From an uncultured Clostridia bacterium (GTDB lineage Bacteria; Bacillota; Clostridia; TANB77; CAG-508): 64,000 nucleotides of DNA. Shown piece by piece: positions 14,628 through 24,202 of the stretch. The notes under the pieces were generated by a model. It did no database searches and had not been told where the DNA came from. It saw only the letters and a program-made list of their open reading frames with translations. Numbering within the stretch: position 1 is the stretch's first letter; each line of letters opens with the position of its first letter. The DNA is taken from contig CALXYJ010000001.1 of NCBI GenBank assembly GCA_944392945.1, positions 116,257 through 180,256 of the forward strand, written 5' to 3'. A program made the position numbers and the translations under genes.

Positions 14628-15689
14628 ATGAAGTTATTAATGCATACTTGTTGTGCACCATGTAGTGTATATTGTATAGATTCGCTAAGAAAAGAGAAAA
14701 TTGAACCAACTGTATATTGGTATAATCCAAATATTCATCCGTATACGGAATATAAAGCTAGAAGGGATTGTTTAAAAGAATATACTAAAAGTATAAACGT
14801 TGAGGCGATTTTTGAAGAAAATTATGGATTAGATGAATTTTGCAAAAATGTAATATGCGATTTGCAAAACAGATGTCAAAATTATTGCTATAAAGTAAGA
14901 TTAGAACAAACTGCTAAATATGCAAAAGAACATGGCTTTGATACTATTTCTACTACTCTTTTAGTAAGCCCATATCAAAAGCATGATATTTTAAAAATGC
15001 AAGGAGAAGAAATAGCGAAGAAATATGGTTTAGAATTTTTATATAGAGATTTTAGAGTAGGATTTAGAGAAGGTCAGGCAAAAGCAAGAGAACTTGGTTT
15101 ATATATACAAAAATATTGTGGTTGTATTTTTTCTGAGGAAAGTAGATATTTAAGTCACAATCAAGAAATGCCAAAATTGCCAGAAGGTTTCGAATTTTTA
15201 CAAGTAAAGCATTCAATTAATATAAGGAAGGAAAGAGATGAGAAAGAAAAATATTTAGAGTTACTTCTAGAAGCAGATCCAAGTAAAGAGATGGTTGAAA
15301 AATATTTATCTGATGGTGAATTATTTGTATTAACATATAATGATGAACCAGTTTGTATTGCTGTAACTGTACAGAAAGATAATGATACAATAGAATTAAA
15401 AAATATAGTAACAAAAGAAAAATACAGAGGAAAAGGCTATGCTAAAAAAATGATTAAGTACTTAGTAGATAATTATAAAACAAGATATAGTAAGATGATT
15501 GTAGGGACAACAGAAAATAACATACCATTCTATGTAAAACAAGGATTTGATAAATACGAAAAAACTATTAAAAATTTCTTTACTGATAATTATGATGAAG
15601 AATTAATGGATGGAAGTATGCCATGTATTGATATGTATTATTATTCAAAAGATTTAATAAAAAATAATAGAATAAGTAATATAAAATAA
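14628..15689 (+). CDS. queH: Epoxyqueuosine reductase QueH fused to a C-terminal GNAT acetyltransferase
   Basis: HTCCAPCS, YNPNIHP, CxxC, TTLLVSPYQ and QKYCGCIFS (DUF208/QueH). The C-terminal LLLEADP, ELKNI..YRGKGY and FYVKQGF motifs are GNAT. Confidence 0.85.
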   Translation: MKLLMHTCCAPCSVYCIDSLRKEKIEPTVYWYNPNIHPYTEYKARRDCLKEYTKSINVEAIFEENYGLDEFCKNVICDLQNRCQNYCYKVRLEQTAKYAKEHGFDTISTTLLVSPYQKHDILKMQGEEIAKKYGLEFLYRDFRVGFREGQAKARELGLYIQKYCGCIFSEESRYLSHNQEMPKLPEGFEFLQVKHSINIRKERDEKEKYLELLLEADPSKEMVEKYLSDGELFVLTYNDEPVCIAVTVQKDNDTIELKNIVTKEKYRGKGYAKKMIKYLVDNYKTRYSKMIVGTTENNIPFYVKQGFDKYEKTIKNFFTDNYDEELMDGSMPCIDMYYYSKDLIKNNRISNIK

Positions 15690-15698
15690 TCTTGAAAT

Positions 15699-15773
15699 TT
15701 TTCAGAAGATGACAGATATAGGAAGAAGAGTGAGAAAGATAAAAAAACAGTAATTAGGCAAGAAGGAAAATAA
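15699..15773 (+). repeat. Displaced copy of a queH 3' end (FSEDDRYRKKSEKDKKTVIRQEGK*)
   Basis: TTT TCA GAA GAT GAC AGA TAT aligns to queH TTT TCT GAG GAA AGT AGA TAT at 15129-15149. It is close to the copy at 19737. Confidence 0.7.
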
Positions 15774-15839
15774 ATAGTATAAAAAAGAAAAGATTAAGTT
15801 AACGAGGATTTTAGAAAATAAAAAAGGAGGAAATGTTAT

Positions 15840-16964
15840 ATGGTAATATATTATATAACAATTTTAGGAGTAATACTTATACTAATTTTTCTAGGATTAC
15901 TTATTTTGACTGGAGCTATTATATTTTTAGTAAGCATTATTAAAGCTAAAAAACAAAAAAAGAAAATTAATAAAATTAGTACTTTAATTGGATGCGTTTT
16001 GATAATATTGCCACTAGTTTTTATAACATCGATATATGATTGGAAAAATGAAATATCTCAAGATGATAATACTAGTGATTATAACAATTTAGGTGAAAAA
16101 TGGAGTAACAGCTATACTTCCAAGAATACTGCTAATGACGATGTAATACAATATCTATTAAAAGGTATAGAAAGTCGTGATGTTGAAATAATTTCTAATA
16201 TGTTTTCGGAAGAAACTAGAAACAAATCGAATTTTCAAAGCGAAGTAAATGAATTTTTAGAAAATGTACCAGAAGATTTTAATGAGTATACTTATAAAGA
16301 AATAACCTCATCACGATCAGGCTCTTATTCAAAAGGAACATCAACAAAAGAATTGGATAGTAATTATATATTTCAAAAAGATAATAAAGTAATCTACTTA
16401 TCTTATTCAGGATATATTGAAAATGATAGTGAAAAATCAAAAATAGGATTAGAAAAATTATATTTACAATCAGCAGAAGCAAAAATACTAGAAAGAGAAG
16501 AAGAAAATGATATACAAAGTAAATATCTTTTTATGATGCCAGATGGCAGTGAATATAGAGAGAGAACAACTACAAATAATCAAGAGAAATATGTTATTAA
16601 GGATAATCAAATTCTTGTTTGCTATATAGATGTTGATGAAGAATTTGAGTTTAAAATTATAAAAAATTATTATCCATATAGATTTAATTCTTACGATAGA
16701 AGTATAACTAAAGATGAATTAATTAATGCATATGAGCAATCAAGAAAAGTAGAAGATATAGTTTCTTTATTAGGTGATCCGAATGCAATTTCTTATTCTA
16801 GTACATTAAAGAATATTCTTTATGAAGTAAAAGATATGGATACTACAATATATGCATTTATAAACTTTGATGTTTATTATAGATTAGGAAGTTGTAGCTT
16901 TTATACTCAAGATGGCAAGTATATAGAAACTATTAAACGTTCACAAATGGAAGATGAAGGATGA
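15840..16964 (+). CDS. Hypothetical membrane-anchored protein (two N-terminal TM helices, extracellular domain)
   Basis: 374-aa ORF with RBS AAGGAGG. No recognised family. Confidence 0.75.
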   Translation: MVIYYITILGVILILIFLGLLILTGAIIFLVSIIKAKKQKKKINKISTLIGCVLIILPLVFITSIYDWKNEISQDDNTSDYNNLGEKWSNSYTSKNTANDDVIQYLLKGIESRDVEIISNMFSEETRNKSNFQSEVNEFLENVPEDFNEYTYKEITSSRSGSYSKGTSTKELDSNYIFQKDNKVIYLSYSGYIENDSEKSKIGLEKLYLQSAEAKILEREEENDIQSKYLFMMPDGSEYRERTTTNNQEKYVIKDNQILVCYIDVDEEFEFKIIKNYYPYRFNSYDRSITKDELINAYEQSRKVEDIVSLLGDPNAISYSSTLKNILYEVKDMDTTIYAFINFDVYYRLGSCSFYTQDGKYIETIKRSQMEDEG

Positions 16965-17165
16965 TAAGAAGCGTGTGGTAATGATGAATAGATGATATAA
17001 TGAAGGAATTTTAGAGAAATGTCTTCCAAAATATTTATAAAAAGATTAAAAAAAATTAAAAGAAGGTATAAAAAACAAAGTAAGGTATTTATCCTTTAAT
17101 TTGGAAAGTATATTAGTGAAAAACTAGAGTTTGAAATTGTATGAAAAGATAAAAAAGGAGTAGAA

Positions 17166-17986
17166 ATGCTAGTAGAAATAATAGGAGATTTAGCAGGAAC
17201 CAAATATGAATATCAAGAATTTATGGATTCAAGAAAGGACATCATTAATGTAGGAAGAAGAAAAGAAATACTTAATCCTGATATTGAACTATTGACAGAT
17301 GAAAGTTTTATTAATGATGATTAACTTTTTACAATAGCAATTGCGGAGGCGATATTTTATAATAGAGATTATAAGGAAGTTTTAAAAAAGTATGTACAAA
17401 AATATGGAAATAAACCAGTAGAAAGAAAGGATTTTTTAAAAATGTTTTTTCTCCAAGCTTTATAAAATGGGCAAATTCTAATACTAATGAAAATGCAGAT
17501 AGTCAAGGAAATGGCGTGGCTATGCGAATTTCATCAGTAGCATTTTTATTTGAAGATATAGAAATAGTGGAAAAAGAAGCAAAAAAAGCAACTATACCAT
17601 CACATAATAGTAGTGAGGCTATAAGAGGAGCAACATGCCTTGCAGGTACAATATTTTTAGCTAGAAAAAAACAAGGTAAAGATAAAATTAAAAAATATGT
17701 TACTAAAAAATATGGATATAATTTAAATTATAATTTAGAAGAGTTACAAGAAAATAATACTTGGACTTGTGAAGTAACTGTACCACAAGCAATATTTTTA
17801 TTTTTGAAATCTAATAATTTTGAAGATTCAATAAGAAAAGCAATTTCGATTGGAGGAGATACAGATACAATTGATTGCATGGTAGGTGGATTTTCAGAAG
17901 CATATTATGGAATACCAAAAGAATTAAGGAATAAAGCTATAAAGTTATTACCAACAGATTTAAGAAATATTATAATAAAAGCATAA
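17166..17986 (+). pseudogene. ADP-ribosylglycohydrolase pseudogene
   Basis: RBS plus MLVEIIGDLAG start. In-frame TAA at 17322 and a frameshift near 17445. Then SQGNGVAMRIS, PSHNS, TVPQAI and GGDTDT motifs. Confidence 0.85.
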
Positions 17987-18008
17987 AAATTAACGAAGAA
18001 CAAACAAA

Positions 18009-18239
18009 ATGAGATATGTGAAATTTGAGTGGCTAATAAGTAAGAATTCAGAAAGAGGTAGATATCTAGGCGAGAATTTTCAACCATCGAAATTGCCAGA
18101 TGGTTTTGAGTTCTTACTAGTACAGCATTCAATTAATATAAAAAAGAAAGAGATAATAAAGAAAGATAATGATACAATAGAACTAAAAAATATAGTAACA
18201 AAAATATACAAAAAATGTTATGAATTAGTGAGAAGTTAA
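18009..18239 (+). pseudogene. Decayed, internally deleted copy of the queH tail + GNAT module
   Basis: SERGRYL..KLPDGFEFLLVQHSINIK and KDNDTIELKNIVTK match queH-GNAT SEESRYL..KLPEGFEFLQVKHSINIR and KDNDTIELKNIVTK. Confidence 0.85.
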
Positions 18240-18252
18240 AGGAGTTATAATT

Positions 18253-18570
18253 ATGGACAAATATATTATAGTAAAGGTCTTATGTGATAAGAATGAAATA
18301 ACAAATAATATAGTTGATAGTGTTTTAAATAAAAGATTAGTGGCAGGTTGTCAAATATATGAATGTAGATCTAAATATCACTGGAATAATGAAATAGAGC
18401 AAACGAATGAATATTTAATTGAAATGAGAACTAAATTATCAAAATTTAGTGCGATTGAAAAACTTGTAAAAGAAATTCACGATTATGATGTTTGCGAAAT
18501 TTCTTATGTTGAAATATCAGGTGCAAATAAAGAATTTTTAGATTGGATTGATAAAATAATAGAAAGTTAA
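18253..18570 (+). CDS. cutA: Divalent-cation tolerance protein CutA
   Basis: LVAGCQ, SKYHWN and HDYDVCEI motifs; 105 aa. Confidence 0.85.
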   Translation: MDKYIIVKVLCDKNEITNNIVDSVLNKRLVAGCQIYECRSKYHWNNEIEQTNEYLIEMRTKLSKFSAIEKLVKEIHDYDVCEISYVEISGANKEFLDWIDKIIES

Positions 18571-18647
18571 TAAATTTAATCTATATATTGAACTGTGTGA
18601 AGATAAGTCGCTAGATAAATAGAACATATAAAAAAAGGAGTAATTGA

Positions 18648-18690
18648 GAGGAAGATAGATAAAAATTAAAAAAGATAAGAAAAATAAATA
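18648..18690 (+). repeat. Degenerate copy of a queH 3' end
   Basis: GAGGAAGATAGATA...AAAATTAAAAAAGATAAG resembles GAGGAGGATAGATATAGGAAAAAGATTGAGAAAGATAG at 19740. Confidence 0.5.
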
Positions 18691-18753
18691 AAAAAATATA
18701 ATTGTGTGATCTGTGGAGACACAATTTAGAAAATAAGAAAGGAGTGTGAAAAA

Positions 18754-19556
18754 ATGAGCAAACTAGAAGAGTTAAGAGATTTAATTATATATCAAAGCAG
18801 AAATAATGAGAATATATCAGTAGAAGTATTATATGACAATGAGGATTTTTGGTTAACTCAAAAATCGATGTCAAAATTATTTAATGTTGAAGTAAATACT
18901 ATAAATTATCATTTAAAAGAGATTTTTGAAACTCATGAATTAGAGAAAAATCGAACTATTCAAAAATTCGAACAGTTCAAAAAAAAGGAAATGGAAGTGT
19001 TTCAAGAGAATTAACTTTTTACAGTTTAGATGCGATTATTGCAGTTGGATATAGAGTGAACTCAAAAGAAGCTACTGATTTTAGAATTTGGGCAACTAAT
19101 ACATTAAAAGAATACATAAAAAAAGGTTTTGTTTTAAATGATGAATTATTAAAAAATGGACCTAAATTTGGAAAAGATTATTTTAAAGAACTCTTAGAAC
19201 GTATTCGTTCAATTAGGACAAGCGAACGAAGAATTTGGCAACAGATAACAGATATATTTGCAGAATGAAGAAAAACAAATAAAAGACTAGAAAGAGCGGT
19301 ATCGGGTTATTTTGACTATATAGAAGACTTAGTAGAAAGAGAAAACACATTCACAATGGAGGAATTTGCAAAAAGTGTTAATGAATTCTTAGAATTTAGA
19401 AAATATGATATATTAAAGGATAATGGAAAAATTTCTAGAAAAATAGCTGAGGAAAAGGCTGAAAAGGAATATAACGAATTTAATAAGCATCAAAAAATAA
19501 TATCAGATTTTGATAAATTAATTTTAGAAACAAAAAAGTTGGATGAAAAGAAATGA
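18754..19556 (+). pseudogene. RhuM-family (virulence protein/Fic-associated DNA-binding) pseudogene
   Basis: FWLTQKSMSKLF, YSLDAIIAVGYRVNS, FRIWAT and IRSIRTSER motifs. Frameshift near 18965 and an apparent internal deletion/stop near 19268. Confidence 0.85.
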
Positions 19557-19695
19557 GATTATATATTATAACCACAAAAACGGACAAACATTTATATATG
19601 TAGGAAAACAGAAATTTTTGAAAAGGGCTTAAATCTGTGGCTTAAAGAACTGAAATAGATTTCAAATGTAGTTATATCAAGTGCTTTAAGGAGTA
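19553..19695 (+). pseudogene. Possible histidine-phosphatase (phosphoglycerate mutase family) remnant
   Basis: ATGA overlap with the RhuM stop. MRLYII followed by ..AC GGA CAA ACA (xGQT, compare RHGQT) and VVISSALR (compare ISSPLxR), in broken frames. Confidence 0.4.
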
Positions 19696-19736
19696 ATGTC
19701 AGGGTACGCAAATTTTGACAGTTAAATAAGAAGAGT

Positions 19737-19793
19737 TCTGAGGAGGATAGATATAGGAAAAAGATTGAGAAAGATAGAGTGAAAAATATTTAG
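19737..19793 (+). repeat. Displaced copy of a queH 3' end (SEEDRYRKKIEKDRVKNI*)
   Basis: TCT GAG GAG GAT AGA TAT versus queH TCT GAG GAA AGT AGA TAT. Its TAG overlaps the RBS (TAGGAGG) of the next gene. Confidence 0.75.
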
Positions 19794-19804
19794 GAGGACA
19801 AGTA

Positions 19805-20512
19805 ATGAAATTAAAAATACTAGGTTCAGGAAATATATTTTCTAAAGATAATAGTGCAAGTTGTTTAATAGATAATAAAATATTAGTTGATGTACCTAAT
19901 GGAACATGTAAGACTTAAAAAAGAATTGAGATTGAGCCAAGCAATATTTCAAATGTATTAATTACACATTTCCATGGAGATCATTATTTTGATATACCAT
20001 TTGTGTTATTGAATAAAATATCTAATAGCAATGAACCAATAAATATATATTGTGATGCTTCTGGAGAAGATAAAATATATAATTTAACTAAATTAGCATT
20101 TCCTAATAAAGTAGATAAAATTAATCAATATTTTAAATATAATACAAATATTAATTTTAGTATAGGAAACTATATAGTAGAAAAAGTAAAATTGGAACAT
20201 GAAGAAGGGATAGAAGCTAATGGATATATTTTTAAAGAAGAAGATATAAAAATAGGTTTTACTGGTGATACAGGTATATGCCAAGGAGTAAAGCTGATGG
20301 CAGAAGAATGCAGTTATTTAATATGTGATTGCAACGCATTGAAAGGAAAAAAATCACATATTGGAGTTGACGAAATTATAGAGTTAGCAAAAAAATATGA
20401 AAATTGTACCTTGTATACAACACATATGGGAAATGATGTAAGAGAAGCAATAATATCACTTAATATAAAAAATCTTATTCCATTATATGATTATGATGAA
20501 TTTTTAATATAA
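19805..20512 (+). pseudogene. Metallo-beta-lactamase-fold hydrolase (RNase Z-like) with one nonsense codon
   Basis: MKLKILGSG start, THFHGDH, FTGDT and TTHM motifs. Single in-frame TAA at 19916-19918. Confidence 0.85.
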
Positions 20513-20604
20513 ACAGTAGAAAAATATGTTAAAAATAGACTAATATTTCGTAGAAATAAAGTATGTATGAATTTGGATGGAAGTAAATAAGGAGGATTTT
20601 TTAC

Positions 20605-20811
20605 TTGAATAATAACTTAGATTTGAATTTTAATGAAATTATCAATATGATTGAAACAAGAAGAAATAATGCTTACAAAAAAGTAAATGAAGAACTTATT
20701 TCTCTATATTGAGATTTTGGAAAGTATATTAGTGAAAAAGTTAATGATAGTAATTGGGGAGATAAAATTGTAGATAAACTTGAAGAGATATATTGCAAAT
20801 TATTATGGTAG
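20605..20811 (+). pseudogene. DUF1016 (YhcG-like) N-terminal fragment
   Basis: VNEELISLY*DFGKYISEK...WGDKIVDKL, with TGA at 20710 in place of the conserved Trp. The gene is truncated. Confidence 0.75.
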
Positions 20812-20906
20812 ATAAATATACAGCTGAAGAAATAGAGAAATACATAAGCATTGTGTTACTAAACATAATGTGATATAATTGCAAAAAAATTAGGAGGTTG
20901 AATCAT

Positions 20907-21219
20907 ATGAATTCATTAATTAATGAGCTTGTTAAAAAATTGCGGAATGTAAAAAATGAGGAAGAAGCAAAGAGGTTGTCTTATGAACTTTCGGATACAT
21001 TCGATGAGGTTGGAATAACAGAAATATTGGTTTAAAAAATCAGATCAATTTTGGTTATCAAATGATGGGTTATGGGACAAATGGGAAGGTTTCATAAGAT
21101 ATGAACTTTCAGGTAAATTGGCTGTACATCCTTTAAGCGCTGTTCCGGTAGAGAGGTTTTATCATGATCTTCTGTTTGAAGAGGTAAATGCTATATGGCG
21201 TAAAGCTAAATCTGAATAG
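20907..21219 (+). pseudogene. Frameshifted orphan ORF
   Basis: RBS AGGAGG plus a 42-codon ORF ending at 21035. The +1 frame continues plausibly to TAG 21219. The shift lies near 21020, not at a CGG. Confidence 0.5.
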
Positions 21220-21228
21220 TATTGATTT

Positions 21229-21276
21229 TTATTAACACACAATGAAAAGACGAGATGTTTCATTGTGTGTTAATAT
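21229..21276. terminator. Perfect 19-bp inverted repeat closing the queH-downstream array
   Basis: TTATTAACACACAATGAAA-10 nt-TTTCATTGTGTGTTAATAA. Confidence 0.7.
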
Positions 21277-21327: not shown

Positions 21328-21471
21328 ATGAAAAATAATAATTATATAAAAGAGTTGTCAAATATAATGTATATGGATTATAATTTTACTCAGAAAGAAA
21401 TAGCCGAAACACTAGGAGTGAATAAGTTAAAATTCATAGATTATTACATGAACTTTAAGGAACGTCCCTAA
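21328..21471 (+). pseudogene. Short HTH-like remnant (FTQKEIAETLGVNK)
   Basis: 47-codon ORF without a clear RBS. It carries a helix-turn-helix-like motif and ends inside a REP-like palindrome. Confidence 0.45.
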
Positions 21472-21477
21472 AGTTCA
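21448..21477. repeat. REP-like palindrome, copy 1
   Basis: ATGAACTTTAAGGAACGTCCCTAAAGTTCA. Its reverse complement matches 38806..38835 with one mismatch. Confidence 0.8.
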
Positions 21478-21492
21478 AAAGGAGGATATAAT

Positions 21493-22578
21493 ATGGATAA
21501 GCATATGAAGATAGAGGATTTTCAGGAAGATATTGATAAAAAGAACTATGATAAGGTGTATAAACAGATTGTTGAGCAAACTATGAAGTTGCTTAAACAA
21601 ATTGCTAAAAAATTTAAGATTGAGATTGATTTTAATGAGACACATGGCGACGAATATCCTTTTTTTGAAATTGAATATAATTTTGAAAGACAGAGCTATT
21701 CTTTTGAAAGTGTAAAATATATGATGTATTCTCTAGAAAATTGGGAAGAAGATCCAGATGATTTATTAAAAGAAACTCCAGATATTAAAATAAATAGATA
21801 TATCAATTATTATAATCAAATTATTAATACTTTGGAAGAACTGGAGAAAGTTGAAGAAGAAATAAAAGTAAAAGGTTATGAGAATTTAAAAAATGCAGAG
21901 ATAAAAAAATTAATAAAACTTTTTAAAGAGATGATGGAGTACAAGCATAAAAAATACGATGAAAATTGGGATTTTGAAACATGGTTAGATAAATTAGATG
22001 AAGCTTACCATTATTATCATAATGATTTTATGGATGCATATGAAATAGTAGAAAGAGGTTGTATTTCAAGAGAAGTAGATGCAGACTATGAGGTCATAAT
22101 AAAAACCACAAAAGCAGAAAGAATAATAGAGTTACGAACTTTATATGACTTTTTAACTTGGGATAAAGATGATTATAAAAATTATGCAAATTATTATAGA
22201 GATTATGAATTAAAAGAGGGACAAACTTATAAAGATTTATTTGATTTGGAAAAAGAAAAATTTGTAAAATTATTTAAAGAAATGCTTGAATTTGTAAAAT
22301 ATAAATATGAAAGCAATGATTTTTATGCATTAATGGTAGATATAAAAAATGCATATCCTTTTTATAGAAATTTAATTACACATTTAGATGTTGAATTGTC
22401 ACAACCATATACAACCTACATTGAAAATTTAGACTATATGGAAGATGTATATGAAAATCTTTCTAAGAATTATAAAAATTTTGACGAAAACATGAAGAAA
22501 TTTCAAGAGCAACAAAAAGATTTAGAACAAGAAATAGATGAAGGGTTTGGGGATGAAGAAGATGATGAATATATTTAA
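21493..22578 (+). CDS. Acidic helical hypothetical protein
   Basis: 361-aa ORF with RBS GGAGG. It has an internal repeat (KLIKLFKEMMEYKHKKYD / KFVKLFKEMLEFVKYKYE). Confidence 0.75.
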   Translation: MDKHMKIEDFQEDIDKKNYDKVYKQIVEQTMKLLKQIAKKFKIEIDFNETHGDEYPFFEIEYNFERQSYSFESVKYMMYSLENWEEDPDDLLKETPDIKINRYINYYNQIINTLEELEKVEEEIKVKGYENLKNAEIKKLIKLFKEMMEYKHKKYDENWDFETWLDKLDEAYHYYHNDFMDAYEIVERGCISREVDADYEVIIKTTKAERIIELRTLYDFLTWDKDDYKNYANYYRDYELKEGQTYKDLFDLEKEKFVKLFKEMLEFVKYKYESNDFYALMVDIKNAYPFYRNLITHLDVELSQPYTTYIENLDYMEDVYENLSKNYKNFDENMKKFQEQQKDLEQEIDEGFGDEEDDEYI

Positions 22579-23014
22579 AAATATATTTGAATATTTTAAT
22601 ATGGATAATAGAAAAAATCGTAATGAATTACGATCAAGACAACAAGATGATTTTGAAACTAAATATGGTCAATATAAATTTCTAATATCAAGTGATACTG
22701 CCTATGAAATAGCTTGTCAAAATGAAAATTTAAAAACAGATTATTGTAGAGCTAATAGAAAAAGCTATTCATATATTGGGTTTAGAGATAAAAGAATTGA
22801 CCTTGTAGAAATTGATCAGCGATTATATTGGAAAATTCAAATATTAGATTGTGATATTTCGGGAATAGATTTTGAAAAAGGTGAAACAGTGTTCTGGGAT
22901 GGATTTGTCCCAGATAAAGATTTATATAAATTAAAATGTTTAATAGATGTAGAAACAGGAGAATATATATATTATCCTAGAAAAGATAAAAAAATTAGAG
23001 GCACTAGATTTTAA
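22538..23014 (+). CDS. Hypothetical protein (true start probably near 22562-22565)
   Basis: The ORF overlaps the end of the previous gene and ends in 'CLIDVETGEY'. Confidence 0.65.
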   Translation: MKGLGMKKMMNIFKNIFEYFNMDNRKNRNELRSRQQDDFETKYGQYKFLISSDTAYEIACQNENLKTDYCRANRKSYSYIGFRDKRIDLVEIDQRLYWKIQILDCDISGIDFEKGETVFWDGFVPDKDLYKLKCLIDVETGEYIYYPRKDKKIRGTRF

Positions 23015-23236: not shown

Positions 23237-24202
23237 ATGAATAAAATAGGTTTAATAGGAAATACACCAATGATAAAAATTAATTATAAGTATAAGGGAA
23301 AAAGTAAATATATTTATACAAAATTAGAATATTTTAATTTAACTGGCAGTATAAAAGATAGAGTTGCTTTTTATATAATAAATAATGCAAAAAGAAGAGG
23401 AGATTTAAAAGACAGTATGCCAATTGTTGAGGCTACAAGTGGAAATACTGGAATTTCATTATCTGCATTAGGAGCTTTTTATAATCATAAAGTATATATT
23501 TTTATGCCAGATTGGGTAAGTAAAGAAAGAATAGAATTAATGGAAGGCTATGGAGCAAATGTCAAATTATTTTCAAAACAAGATGGTGGATTTTTAAGAT
23601 GTGTTAATGAATCTAAAAATTTTGCAGTATCTAAAAATGCATTTTTAGCGAATCAATTTTCTAATAAAGATAATTTTTTAGCACATTATGAAACAACAGG
23701 AGAAGAAATTATAAAAAATATCCCTGAAACACTATATGGATTTGTATCTGGAGTTGGAACAGGTGGAACTTTAATGGGAATTGGAACAAGATTAAAAGAA
23801 AAATTTAAAGATCTAAAAATAGTTGCAATAGAACCAGATAAAATGCCAATAATATCTAAGGGAATAATCTTAGGAGATCATAAGATAGAAGGAATAGGTG
23901 ATGAATTTGTTCCAGATTTATTAAATAAAAAAATTATAAATGATATTTTTTTAGTAAATGATGATGATGCTATTAATATGTCTAAGAAATTAGCAAAAGA
24001 CTTAGGATTAGGTGTTGGCATTTCTTCCGGAGCTAATTTAATAGGAGCTATATTATTAAACGAAAAAATTAATAAACCAGTAGTTACTGTATTTGCAGAT
24101 GACAATAAAAAATATTTATCTACAGAATTATTTAAGAAATCAGAAGTTAAAGAAGAATTTATATCTAATAATGTTAAATTTATAGATTATGAGTATATTT
24201 AA
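23237..24202 (+). CDS. PLP-dependent cysteine synthase family protein
   Basis: IGNTP, GSIKDR, EATSGNTG, GVGTGGT and GISSGAN motifs. Confidence 0.9.
   Translation: MNKIGLIGNTPMIKINYKYKGKSKYIYTKLEYFNLTGSIKDRVAFYIINNAKRRGDLKDSMPIVEATSGNTGISLSALGAFYNHKVYIFMPDWVSKERIELMEGYGANVKLFSKQDGGFLRCVNESKNFAVSKNAFLANQFSNKDNFLAHYETTGEEIIKNIPETLYGFVSGVGTGGTLMGIGTRLKEKFKDLKIVAIEPDKMPIISKGIILGDHKIEGIGDEFVPDLLNKKIINDIFLVNDDDAINMSKKLAKDLGLGVGISSGANLIGAILLNEKINKPVVTVFADDNKKYLSTELFKKSEVKEEFISNNVKFIDYEYI

Follow-up and report, generated by a model that had tools for sequence, protein, structure and literature searches.

Repeated queH 3′ ends in a clostridial genome as probable scars of recurrent serine-recombinase element insertion

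In the genome of an uncultured Clostridia bacterium (GTDB lineage Bacteria; Bacillota; Clostridia; TANB77; CAG-508), the gene queH is followed by four orphan copies of its own 3′ end. The DNA that we analyzed (here called the window) is a 64,000-nucleotide stretch of contig CALXYJ010000001.1 (assembly GCA_944392945.1, positions 116,257 to 180,256, forward strand), and the four copies, which all lie on the + strand and set in at the same codon of the tail, begin at positions 15702, 18048, about 18647, and 19737. Together with the tail that queH carries at present, they make five tail copies bounding four units. A first-pass annotation, made from the letters alone, had taken these units for small mobile cassettes stacked in integron fashion at one site inside queH. 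The repeated insertion stands, but comparison with relatives points to a different agent: it is likely that the repeated ends are scars left by elements using large serine recombinases (LSRs), which inserted again and again at one site and then decayed. The features of the array that bear on this are the following, with the tails numbered T0 to T4.

14628–15689, + strand: queH, 353 aa, with a QueH domain (residues 3 to 171) and a GNAT domain (residues 220 to 313), both by Pfam
14628–15131, + strand: queH core, the QueH domain to Phe168, probable host side of the attachment site (Pfam QueH, E = 1.9e-58)
15135–15139, + strand: GAGGA (GARGA), the crossover region, directly 3′ of the Ser169 codon TCT (15132–15134), from junction comparison
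15132–15689, + strand: T0, the present replacement tail with a GNAT domain in frame with QueH (GNAT Pfam matches)
15698–15773, + strand: T1, orphan short queH tail (SEDDRYRKKSEKDKK..*), tail start 15702 (nhmmer, E = 3.2e-7)
18048–18239, + strand: T2, orphan GNAT-type tail (SERGRYLGENF..., SERGRYLGENFQPSKLPDGFEFL...), truncated, its GNAT remnant internally deleted (nucleotide and protein matches)
18644–18700, + strand: T3, degenerate orphan short tail (homology to relatives G010 and G004)
19552–19738, + strand: right-end module of a serine-recombinase element, the probable element arm of an attR, without recombinase genes (homology and profile)
19736–19793, + strand: T4, the most distal orphan short tail (SEEDRYRKKIEKDRVKNI*), tail start 19737 (nhmmer, E = 4.7e-9)

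In queH itself, the codons TCT GAG GAA AGT AGA TAT (SEESRY) start at 15132, at the end of the QueH domain, and homology between the window and relatives with a short queH tail ends at 15139 to 15150. T1 and T4 are 85% alike over 41 nt, both being short tails of the type SE(D/E)DRYRKK.EKD, and T4 is probably the oldest or the native end. T2 matches the queH-GNAT tail at 73% over 103 nt and 96% over 47 nt (protein match, E = 1.1e-6), its nearest alleles being those of G003 and G014 (83 to 85% identical). T3 retains 15 exact bases (AGAGGAAGATAGATA) and is degenerate beyond them. It went undetected by the tail profile described below; window positions 18644 to 19270, however, align over 632 nt at 89% identity with the genuine queH tail and RhuM gene of G010, starting from the first codon of that tail, and the T3 stretch is 85% identical to an orphan tail and RhuM gene in G004.

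It might be asked whether such short matches mean anything, given that the region is AT-rich and that the tails encode peptides rich in Lys, Glu, and Asp. We regard chance similarity in AT-rich, purine-rich DNA, or a decayed local tandem duplication, as highly improbable. A profile made solely from the queH ends of nine other genomes, with the window excluded, was run over 21 loci of about 12 kb each; it recovered T1 and T4 at E values from about 3e-7 to 5e-9 and orphan tails in six other genomes, whereas on the opposite strand there were no matches at an E value of ≤10 over the 21 loci. A second, sequence-only model, with T1 and T4 in its training set, was run over both strands of all 26 genus genomes and at an E value of ≤1e-7 found only queH ends and 10 orphan tails in nine genomes. 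Seven of the orphan tails are on a contig that also carries queH, and every one of them is downstream of the gene and in its orientation. Throughout the 1.75-Mb genome to which the window belongs, only T1 and T4 match this second model at an E value of ≤0.01 (both were in its training set). T2 and T3 are backed by the long homologies to alleles of other genomes given above, and the same structure recurs elsewhere with other cargo. The first-pass claim that the queH tail recurs as four downstream copies, similar from the same codon onward and better matched than by chance, is thus borne out by an independent profile and by cross-genome homologies.

Comparison across the genus shows that queH occupies a fixed position in a variable neighborhood. 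In all 24 genus genomes of our first search, it lies downstream of ruvB and a membrane protein gene. Most QueH proteins of the genus are short (about 185 to 200 residues) and end in FSEEDRY(S/M/K)K(Q/K)I.KDK; the remaining alleles, which are patchily distributed over the genus, carry one of three types of GNAT fusion or another fused open reading frame (ORF; FSEEMSSLARQ...). The stretch from queH to cysK (at 23237 in the window) measures 1.5 to 8 kb or more in relatives and varies in content. Genes for RhuM, a metallo-β-lactamase (MBL) hydrolase, CutA, YhcG, DUF4230, ASCH, and several GNATs occur there in differing order, along with an OLD-family nuclease, a zeta-toxin domain protein, and Fic, nearly all of them on the queH strand. 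Content and order thus vary as the first-pass annotation had anticipated, with breakpoints at the TCW|GAR core. In several assemblies, the contig breaks off no more than a few hundred bases from the end of queH, as is expected for a strain-variable spot. The only recombinase among about 160 variable-region ORFs scanned is a split tyrosine integrase beside an IS91-type transposase in G011. There, the two-ORF integrase and then the IS91-family Y2 transposase (L045, 477 to 2485) directly follow the queH-GNAT stop codon, off the GARGA core.

The GNAT parts of these fusions have a history different from that of the gene to which they are joined. In every pair compared, synonymous divergence (dS) is 0.47 to 0.82 in the GNAT part versus 0.97 to 2.15 in the queH core, which is roughly half, and the GNAT parts have therefore been exchanged between species after their hosts diverged. 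With an ω of about 0.2, they are still under selection. The tail-plus-GNAT part matches 1,752 protein clusters at an E value of ≤1e-10; among the best 120 of these, 119 have both a QueH and a GNAT domain, and none of the 120 is named by source.

The strongest evidence comes from relatives in which the insert is still intact; intact elements adjoin queH in G018, G042, and G046. In G018, the queH junction and the orphan tail are about 25 kb apart. The intervening stretch begins with a GNAT fused to QueH, followed by ParA, ParB, a 1,510-residue SpaA-repeat surface protein, a 2,129-residue SNF2/LPD16 protein, an erm-type rRNA adenine dimethylase, a streptomycin adenylyltransferase-family gene, and regulators, and it ends with two tandem LSRs of 558 and 560 residues, the second of which stops about 260 nt short of the tail. 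Resolvase and Recombinase domains are found in both LSRs, and LSR2 has a Zn_ribbon_recom domain as well; the same pair is present in G046. Beyond the orphan tail of G018 come DUF4230, diaminopimelate dehydrogenase, and cysK, as in genomes free of an insert. Between G018 and G022, identity steps from about 80% in the queH core to 94 to 98% from the junction on, and dS falls from 1.22 in the core to 0.09 in the GNAT part, which identifies the GNAT as the left end of an element that has come to be shared recently. The GNAT of T0 is homologous to the left-end GNAT of such intact elements, and we read T0 as the probable left-end remnant of an element once integrated in the window.

The 42.3-kb copy in G046 is a complete conjugative element, with a relaxase, a coupling protein, a VirB4-like ATPase, PrgI, and NikA/MobC, in addition to QueH-GNAT, ParA and ParB, the SpaA protein, LPD16/SNF2, a sortase, a CHAP hydrolase, an ABC transporter, and both LSRs. 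The conjugation module is present in G046 and G022 and absent from the 25-kb copy in G018, which is a shorter derivative. As judged by Pfam labels only, the queH-targeting elements of two of these genomes carry resistance-type genes, erm-type and streptomycin adenylyltransferase-family in G018 (L059, 6498 to 8662) and erm-type in G022 (L073, 139 to 900). The recombinase homologues that we found in G012 and G022 were considered as enzymes of the queH elements and rejected, since they form part of another element inside a penicillin-binding-protein (PBP) gene. Within the genus, an LSR pair beside a queH orphan tail is therefore found only in G018.

Outside the genus comparison, LSR2 is widely spread. 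Copies that are 98 to 100% identical occur on 18 contigs, that of G018 included, and copies that are 74 to 77% identical occur on five more; the contigs with the closer copies belong to metagenome-assembled genomes labelled Clostridia, Clostridium sp., Lachnospiraceae, or Bacilli, and by their record titles the samples were from ruminants and deer or were human associated. Enough flanking DNA to judge was available for 20 of 24 LSR2 loci. In all 20, a conserved element end follows LSR2 by 260 to 300 nt, and the ends fall into two sequence families that track the two recombinase identity groups. What comes after the element end is a queH-type short tail in 13 loci by profile (these being different tails with different flanks) and in two more by eye (the same EEDRY codons), a GNAT-type tail in one (L085, 77% identical to the window GNAT over 497 nt), a fusion tail of the G004 type in one (L080), and unclear sequence in one (L089). 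Because both the tails and the DNA that follows them differ between loci, these are separate insertions into different hosts. In the remaining two (L075 and L079, from public metagenomic contigs), the right end of the element runs into its own left end, the GNAT tail, giving an attP junction that may represent either an excised circle or tandem copies. Of five such genomes, two have queH on the contig and strand of the orphan tail, 42.3 and 45.8 kb upstream of it, and in all five the queH frame is long. A further orphan tail occurs 1.6 to 2.3 kb past the first in 3 of the 24 loci (L082, L093, and L096). In L093, at about 2000 to 2050, the last 23 or so nt of the element right arm are tandemly duplicated just before the orphan tail.

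These intact copies allow the crossover to be placed within a few bases. When attL, attR, and the native site are compared in G018 and G046, only GARGA/GAGGA, 5 nt, is common to all three; native sites without an insert are present in G009 and others. On the queH side, host bases are kept up to the Ser codon (TCA in one of the two hosts, AGT in the second); at the far junction, element bases are kept up to ...GGAGTTGA, whereupon GAGGA follows. The orphan tails of seven short-tail cases, and T2 likewise, begin to align within about 4 nt of the GARGA point. Serine recombinases cross over at 2 bp, and a core of only 5 nt fits such enzymes. In the part of their review that bears on this, Guedon et al. 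(2017, PMC5704250) note "very short direct repeats" for integrative and mobilizable elements (IMEs) with serine recombinases.

The position of these junctions also bears on another account, which the first-pass annotation had left open, namely, that homologous or homology-facilitated illegitimate recombination with DNA from foreign strains, anchored in the body of queH and involving no site-specific enzyme, gave rise to the duplicate tails. Such exchange has something to recommend it. The gene offers a long conserved anchor; its alleles (the short tail, the three GNAT types, and the other fusions) are patchy across the genus; the GNAT dS, at about half that of the core, implies that exchange between species occurs; and the T1 junction, as discussed below, is not cleanly site specific. 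However, right-hand joins made in this way should be random, whereas 10 orphan tails in nine genomes and the 18 tails at LSR loci that are not attP junctions start within a few bases of GARGA. They do so regardless of the type of tail, even where tails share only about 17 nt. Moreover, a conserved element arm precedes the tails, and in intact copies recombinases stand at the junction. We therefore consider a homology-driven origin of the array improbable, crossovers having fallen in the same 5 nt whatever the tail type.

Insertion by LSR elements would proceed as follows. The 3′ end of queH would serve as the chromosomal attachment site of integrative, mostly conjugative, elements, with recombination taking place in the 5-nt GARGA after the Ser169 codon. 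The left end of the element would supply a new in-frame C terminus for QueH, often a whole GNAT acetyltransferase domain, and the old tail would be left orphaned behind the right end. Since the new junction still resembles the native one (TCW GAR GA... AGATAT), the next element could land there again, presumably pushing older inserts outward; the fused junction would thus itself be a substrate, as suggested by the GARGA...AGATAT kept in element tails and by loci L085 and L080. Inserts would later lose their recombinase and transfer genes by deletion, and the window would represent an end state with a live queH-GNAT fusion, four orphan tails, and remnants between them. Each unit of the window would derive from a separate integration, with LSRs, rather than another enzyme, probably carrying out the recombination, and T2 may have arisen when an intact element orphaned a GNAT-type tail, as seen in L085. 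An order in which the newest unit is next to queH and older ones lie outward fits the queH-proximal position of the intact elements, the intact fusion in the window, and the broken state of the distal genes. The gradient from intact proximal to decayed distal units reported earlier holds roughly, with two departures: the ADP-ribosylglycohydrolase gene of the second unit is broken, and the cutA gene of the third is whole. The idea of the first-pass annotation that insertion recurs at one fixed point in queH, each insert bringing its own replacement end and older ones coming to lie further downstream, is supported.

The most direct link between the window and these elements lies just left of T4. 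Positions 19552 to 19738, from the RhuM stop codon to T4, are 78% identical over 226 to 231 nt to DNA located past the recombinase genes of loci L092 and L095 (E = 1e-45 to 2e-48), and they are partly alike to other LSR loci. A profile of recombinase-linked right ends, made with the window excluded, matches 19693 to 19737 at an E value of 8.6e-12, and this is its sole significant match in the 64 kb. T4 and its left flank therefore constitute the attR of an element that lost its recombinases and, with the 186 nt left of T4 being an element right end, the window probably holds a stack of decayed elements. A BLAST search with the right-end module over the genus gave matches in 7 of 26 genomes (that of the window included), mostly to its first 25 to 45 nt. 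The first-pass annotation had seen a left flank common to T2 and T4; the T4 flank is significant with the right-end profile and the T2 flank is not, so the resemblance between the two is weak.

Several observations weigh against this reading of the array. Only the flank of T4 is tied to LSR elements, as the right-end profile gives the T2 flank an E value of 32 and matches nothing at the flanks of T1 and T3. The left flank of T1 consists of the GNAT stop codon and ATTTTTC and so resembles the queH side rather than an element end; because of this, the unit from 15132 to 15702 may stem from deletion or homologous exchange and not from clean integration. (In other genomes, the same GNAT type as that of T0 is followed by different DNA.) No serine- or tyrosine-recombinase domain was found in the 64-kb window, in agreement with the first-pass annotation, and the genome as a whole has no close homologue of the queH-site LSRs. 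We also tested reconstructed joined ends for dyad symmetry, a feature to be expected of LSR sites, ungapped and gapped, against 1,000 shuffles; it is clear only in a unit of G004 that is described below. The reconstructed attP of G018 shows no significant symmetry (578 of 1,000 shuffles were as good ungapped and 270 of 1,000 gapped), and dyad symmetry is absent from all units of the window. Finally, all of the data are from metagenome-assembled genomes. The contigs from public runs are short pieces whose listed joints have sides of 20 to 43 letters, none of them linking two tails; pieces of the array without a single difference, including ones across T2 and from CutA to T3, are present in a second sample of the same study.

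Two motifs picked out by eye were dropped after failing these symmetry tests, namely, inverted motifs in GNAT-type tails and a 5- to 6-nt outward shift of an AAATTTG-like motif between the element and host arms. AAATTTG itself lies 27 to 29 nt left of the junction in T2, G004, G012, and G024, which is a post hoc observation.

The genome has six serine-recombinase domain matches outside the window, and its nine tyrosine-recombinase (Phage_integrase) matches are on other contigs. Its best relative of the queH-site LSRs is a split gene, 64% identical over residues 3 to 174 and 40% over residues 170 to 545, which belongs to the element in the PBP gene. None of its recombinases is thus a near relative of the queH-site enzymes, and the array is therefore probably inert, barring the arrival of another element. 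The condition of the units (T3 degenerate, and only T4 with a recognizable element arm) likewise speaks for their being fossils. The split gene (199 and 481 aa) lies between a PBP transpeptidase gene, with glycosyltransferase genes, and murE-mraY-ftsW. It encodes an LSR with a C-terminal PASTA domain (G000:C12; L069, 5849 to 7820), as does a gene in G022:C2 (L068); for a related copy in G012:C5 (L067), a PASTA domain is not reported. This arrangement suggests that the intervening element sits inside the PBP gene and that the PASTA end of the host protein is read on from the recombinase.

Between and beyond the tails, the following features occur in the window.

15840–16964, + strand: intact gene for a 374-aa membrane protein (ORF; a weak DUF5104 match lies below the Pfam cutoff)
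17166–17986, + strand: ADP-ribosylglycohydrolase pseudogene in two ORF pieces, 17166–17324 and 17516–17986 (Pfam)
18253–18570, + strand: intact gene for CutA1 (Pfam CutA1, E = 5.2e-24, full length)
18754–19556, + strand: RhuM-family pseudogene in three ORF pieces (Pfam Virulence_RhuM on two of them)
19805–20884, + strand: MBL-fold hydrolase pseudogene and DUF1016/YhcG pseudogene (Pfam)
21230–21275, + strand: hairpin with a perfect 18-bp stem and a loop of 10 nt (−26.8 kcal/mol, z = −6.75)

The cargo is as the first-pass annotation had named it, a membrane protein, ADP-ribosylglycohydrolase, CutA, RhuM, MBL, and DUF1016, with Pfam in agreement; no recombinase, relaxase, or secretion gene was found by Pfam among the ORFs of the array or in the window. 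The ADP_ribosyl_GH profile matches the second piece of its pseudogene only, at profile positions 126 to 281 of 287. The same CutA1 gene is also found in the variable region of G016. The RhuM gene is whole in G020, to which the window copy, having lost about 212 nt, is 96.8% identical. Whole copies of the MBL hydrolase and DUF1016/YhcG genes follow queH-GNAT or an orphan tail in G003, G010, and G015; these genes are downstream neighbors common to several relatives and are at most candidate cassettes.

Whether such cargo could move on its own is the crux of an alternative that we consider rather unlikely, although it might hold for some units alongside insertion by LSR elements: that small cassettes without a recombinase, each made up of a tail, cargo, and an element arm, are mobile one by one with the recombinase acting in trans. 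One candidate is a 3-kb unit in G004 that lacks a recombinase and contains the fused ORF, an OLD-family nuclease, a 95-aa ORF, and RhuM. Its joined ends are strongly palindromic, with 22 of 34 positions symmetric (equaled in 0 of 1,000 shuffles) around ATTTCT-GA-AGAAAT, whose center is the first GA of GARGA, and the same orphan flank is found in G001. In G010, a 1.2-kb RhuM unit is bordered directly by the queH tail on one side and an orphan tail on the other, and the RhuM units of the window and G020 are 96.8% identical, against about 79% in their flanks. This high identity, however, is equally explicable by homologous exchange, and the same junctions are explained by intact large elements. 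Neither a circular form nor an empty-site form of a small unit was seen; nor were there attC-like folded sites or a nearby integrase. Many units, moreover, carry remnants of element-end deletion, such as GNAT stumps or the right-end module without its recombinase. Most of the small "cassettes" look like deletion remnants of large integrative and conjugative elements that had LSRs of their own.

The hairpin at 21230 to 21275 had been said to close the array. It is real, lies 1.4 kb past T4, and is at most a candidate boundary; a terminator scan does not report it. Two ORFs of 361 and 158 aa at 21493 to 23014, which have no Pfam family and are 65 to 72% conserved just upstream of cysK in G006, G013, and G004, form a conserved border of the variable region on its right side. 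A 28-nt piece of the start of the DUF1016/YhcG gene is present twice, 93% alike, at 17098 to 17125, upstream of the broken ADP-ribosylglycohydrolase gene, and at 20714 to 20741, in the distal YhcG pseudogene; another unit, since lost, or a rearrangement may account for the two copies. At 21451 to 21475 lies a 25-nt palindromic repeat, AACTTTAAGGAACGTCCCTAAAGTT, of which the genome has 52 copies at ≤3 mismatches (24 forward and 28 reverse, the window copy included), while a reversed-pattern control gave no copies in the same genome. In four metagenome runs, the depth at 21448 to 21831 was 5 to 40 times that of neighboring bins. In G015, two inverted copies of the repeat flank a stretch upstream of queH. 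It looks like an intergenic repeat of the repetitive extragenic palindromic (REP) type.

The process itself, site-specific tandem accretion with decay, is of a kind already known; what is new here is the target gene, the family of elements, and the fact that the target protein gains a whole domain in frame. The staphylococcal cassette chromosome (SCC) elements (SCCmec and composite or pseudo-SCC) insert at the 3′ end of rlmH/orfX in staphylococci by means of the tandem serine recombinases ccrA/ccrB. As in SCC, the queH elements have tandem LSRs and use the 3′ end of a housekeeping RNA modification gene, keeping its reading frame open; short direct repeats of the gene end bound the units, and stacks include units without a recombinase. 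Unlike SCC, the target is queH in gut Clostridia, the elements are conjugative, 42 to 46 kb long, with relaxase and type IV secretion genes, and a whole GNAT domain is added in frame.

The array also resembles integrons in that mostly promoterless genes of the same strand are stacked in one direction, the newest being at the insertion point and older ones decaying further off. It differs from them in that there is no IntI-type integrase or attI beside the array (the window has no Phage_integrase domain), there are no attC hairpins, insertion is inside a coding sequence, and the units hold remnants of large elements. The boundaries of the units in the window show no significant dyad symmetry of the attC type; they are diverged copies of a coding tail. 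An integron-like mechanism, as proposed in the first-pass annotation, is therefore not supported.

Further parallels come from two other systems, the first of which is, with SCC, the nearest match in detail. The ssrA islands of Dehalococcoides are in tandem and bounded by repeats of the gene 3′ end, each repeat being preceded immediately by a conserved motif, and they have the LSR DsiB with an adjacent second serine recombinase; islands without this module are proposed to be cis-mobilizable (McMurdie et al. 2011, PMC3146451). In these accounts, they share with the queH array the multiple repeat-bounded tandem units, paired serine recombinases, and some units without the module. They differ from it in that their target is a tmRNA gene with a 20-bp exact repeat, whereas at queH a protein-coding end gives rise to diverged, translated tails of 40 to 60 nt; furthermore, the Dehalococcoides integration module lies beside attL in non-conjugative islands, whereas the queH elements have their recombinases at the far end. 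The second parallel is the accretion of cis-mobilizable elements (CIMEs), such as those related to ICESt1 at fda in Streptococcus thermophilus, in the relevant part of the review by Guedon et al. (2017, PMC5704250). There, too, integration is followed by decay that keeps the att sites without integration or transfer genes and by further integration at the same site. The window has just this composition, with tandem units flanked by att copies and lacking integration and transfer genes, while the ICESt1-type CIMEs, as described there, use tyrosine integrases and longer identical cores. The same part of the review (PMC5704250) has serine-recombinase IMEs mostly disrupting their target genes; queH, unlike most such targets, is preserved and extended. 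Our literature searches turned up no paper linking queH to an attachment site, and the supplementary site lists of serine-recombinase surveys may already include it.

One possibility, which we offer tentatively since we think it rather less probable than not, is the following: the GNAT gene, the first of the element, straddles the element's own attachment site and is welded to QueH upon integration, the chimera outlives the element, and the locus becomes a reusable landing pad. In its free form, the GNAT would start at an ATG three codons past the crossover (SEE-M...), preceded by a GGAG-rich stretch of the right end. Once joined, the QueH-GNAT chimera would have been kept under purifying selection (ω of about 0.2) in many species, so that a mobile element would be the route by which a tRNA modification enzyme gained a domain. 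Because the junction mimics the native site, the locus as a landing pad would record successive invasions in order.

For the biology of these bacteria, the finding means that queH is probably where a widespread family of conjugative elements inserts into the chromosomes of gut Clostridia, some copies of which carry macrolide- or aminoglycoside-resistance-type genes. The site and both arms of the element are defined to within a few bases, so the recombinases and their sites are directly testable. A queH-GNAT fusion, or an orphan queH tail, may serve in annotation as a marker of past invasion, and the locus would provide a clean natural case of target-gene preservation and extension by a serine-recombinase element.

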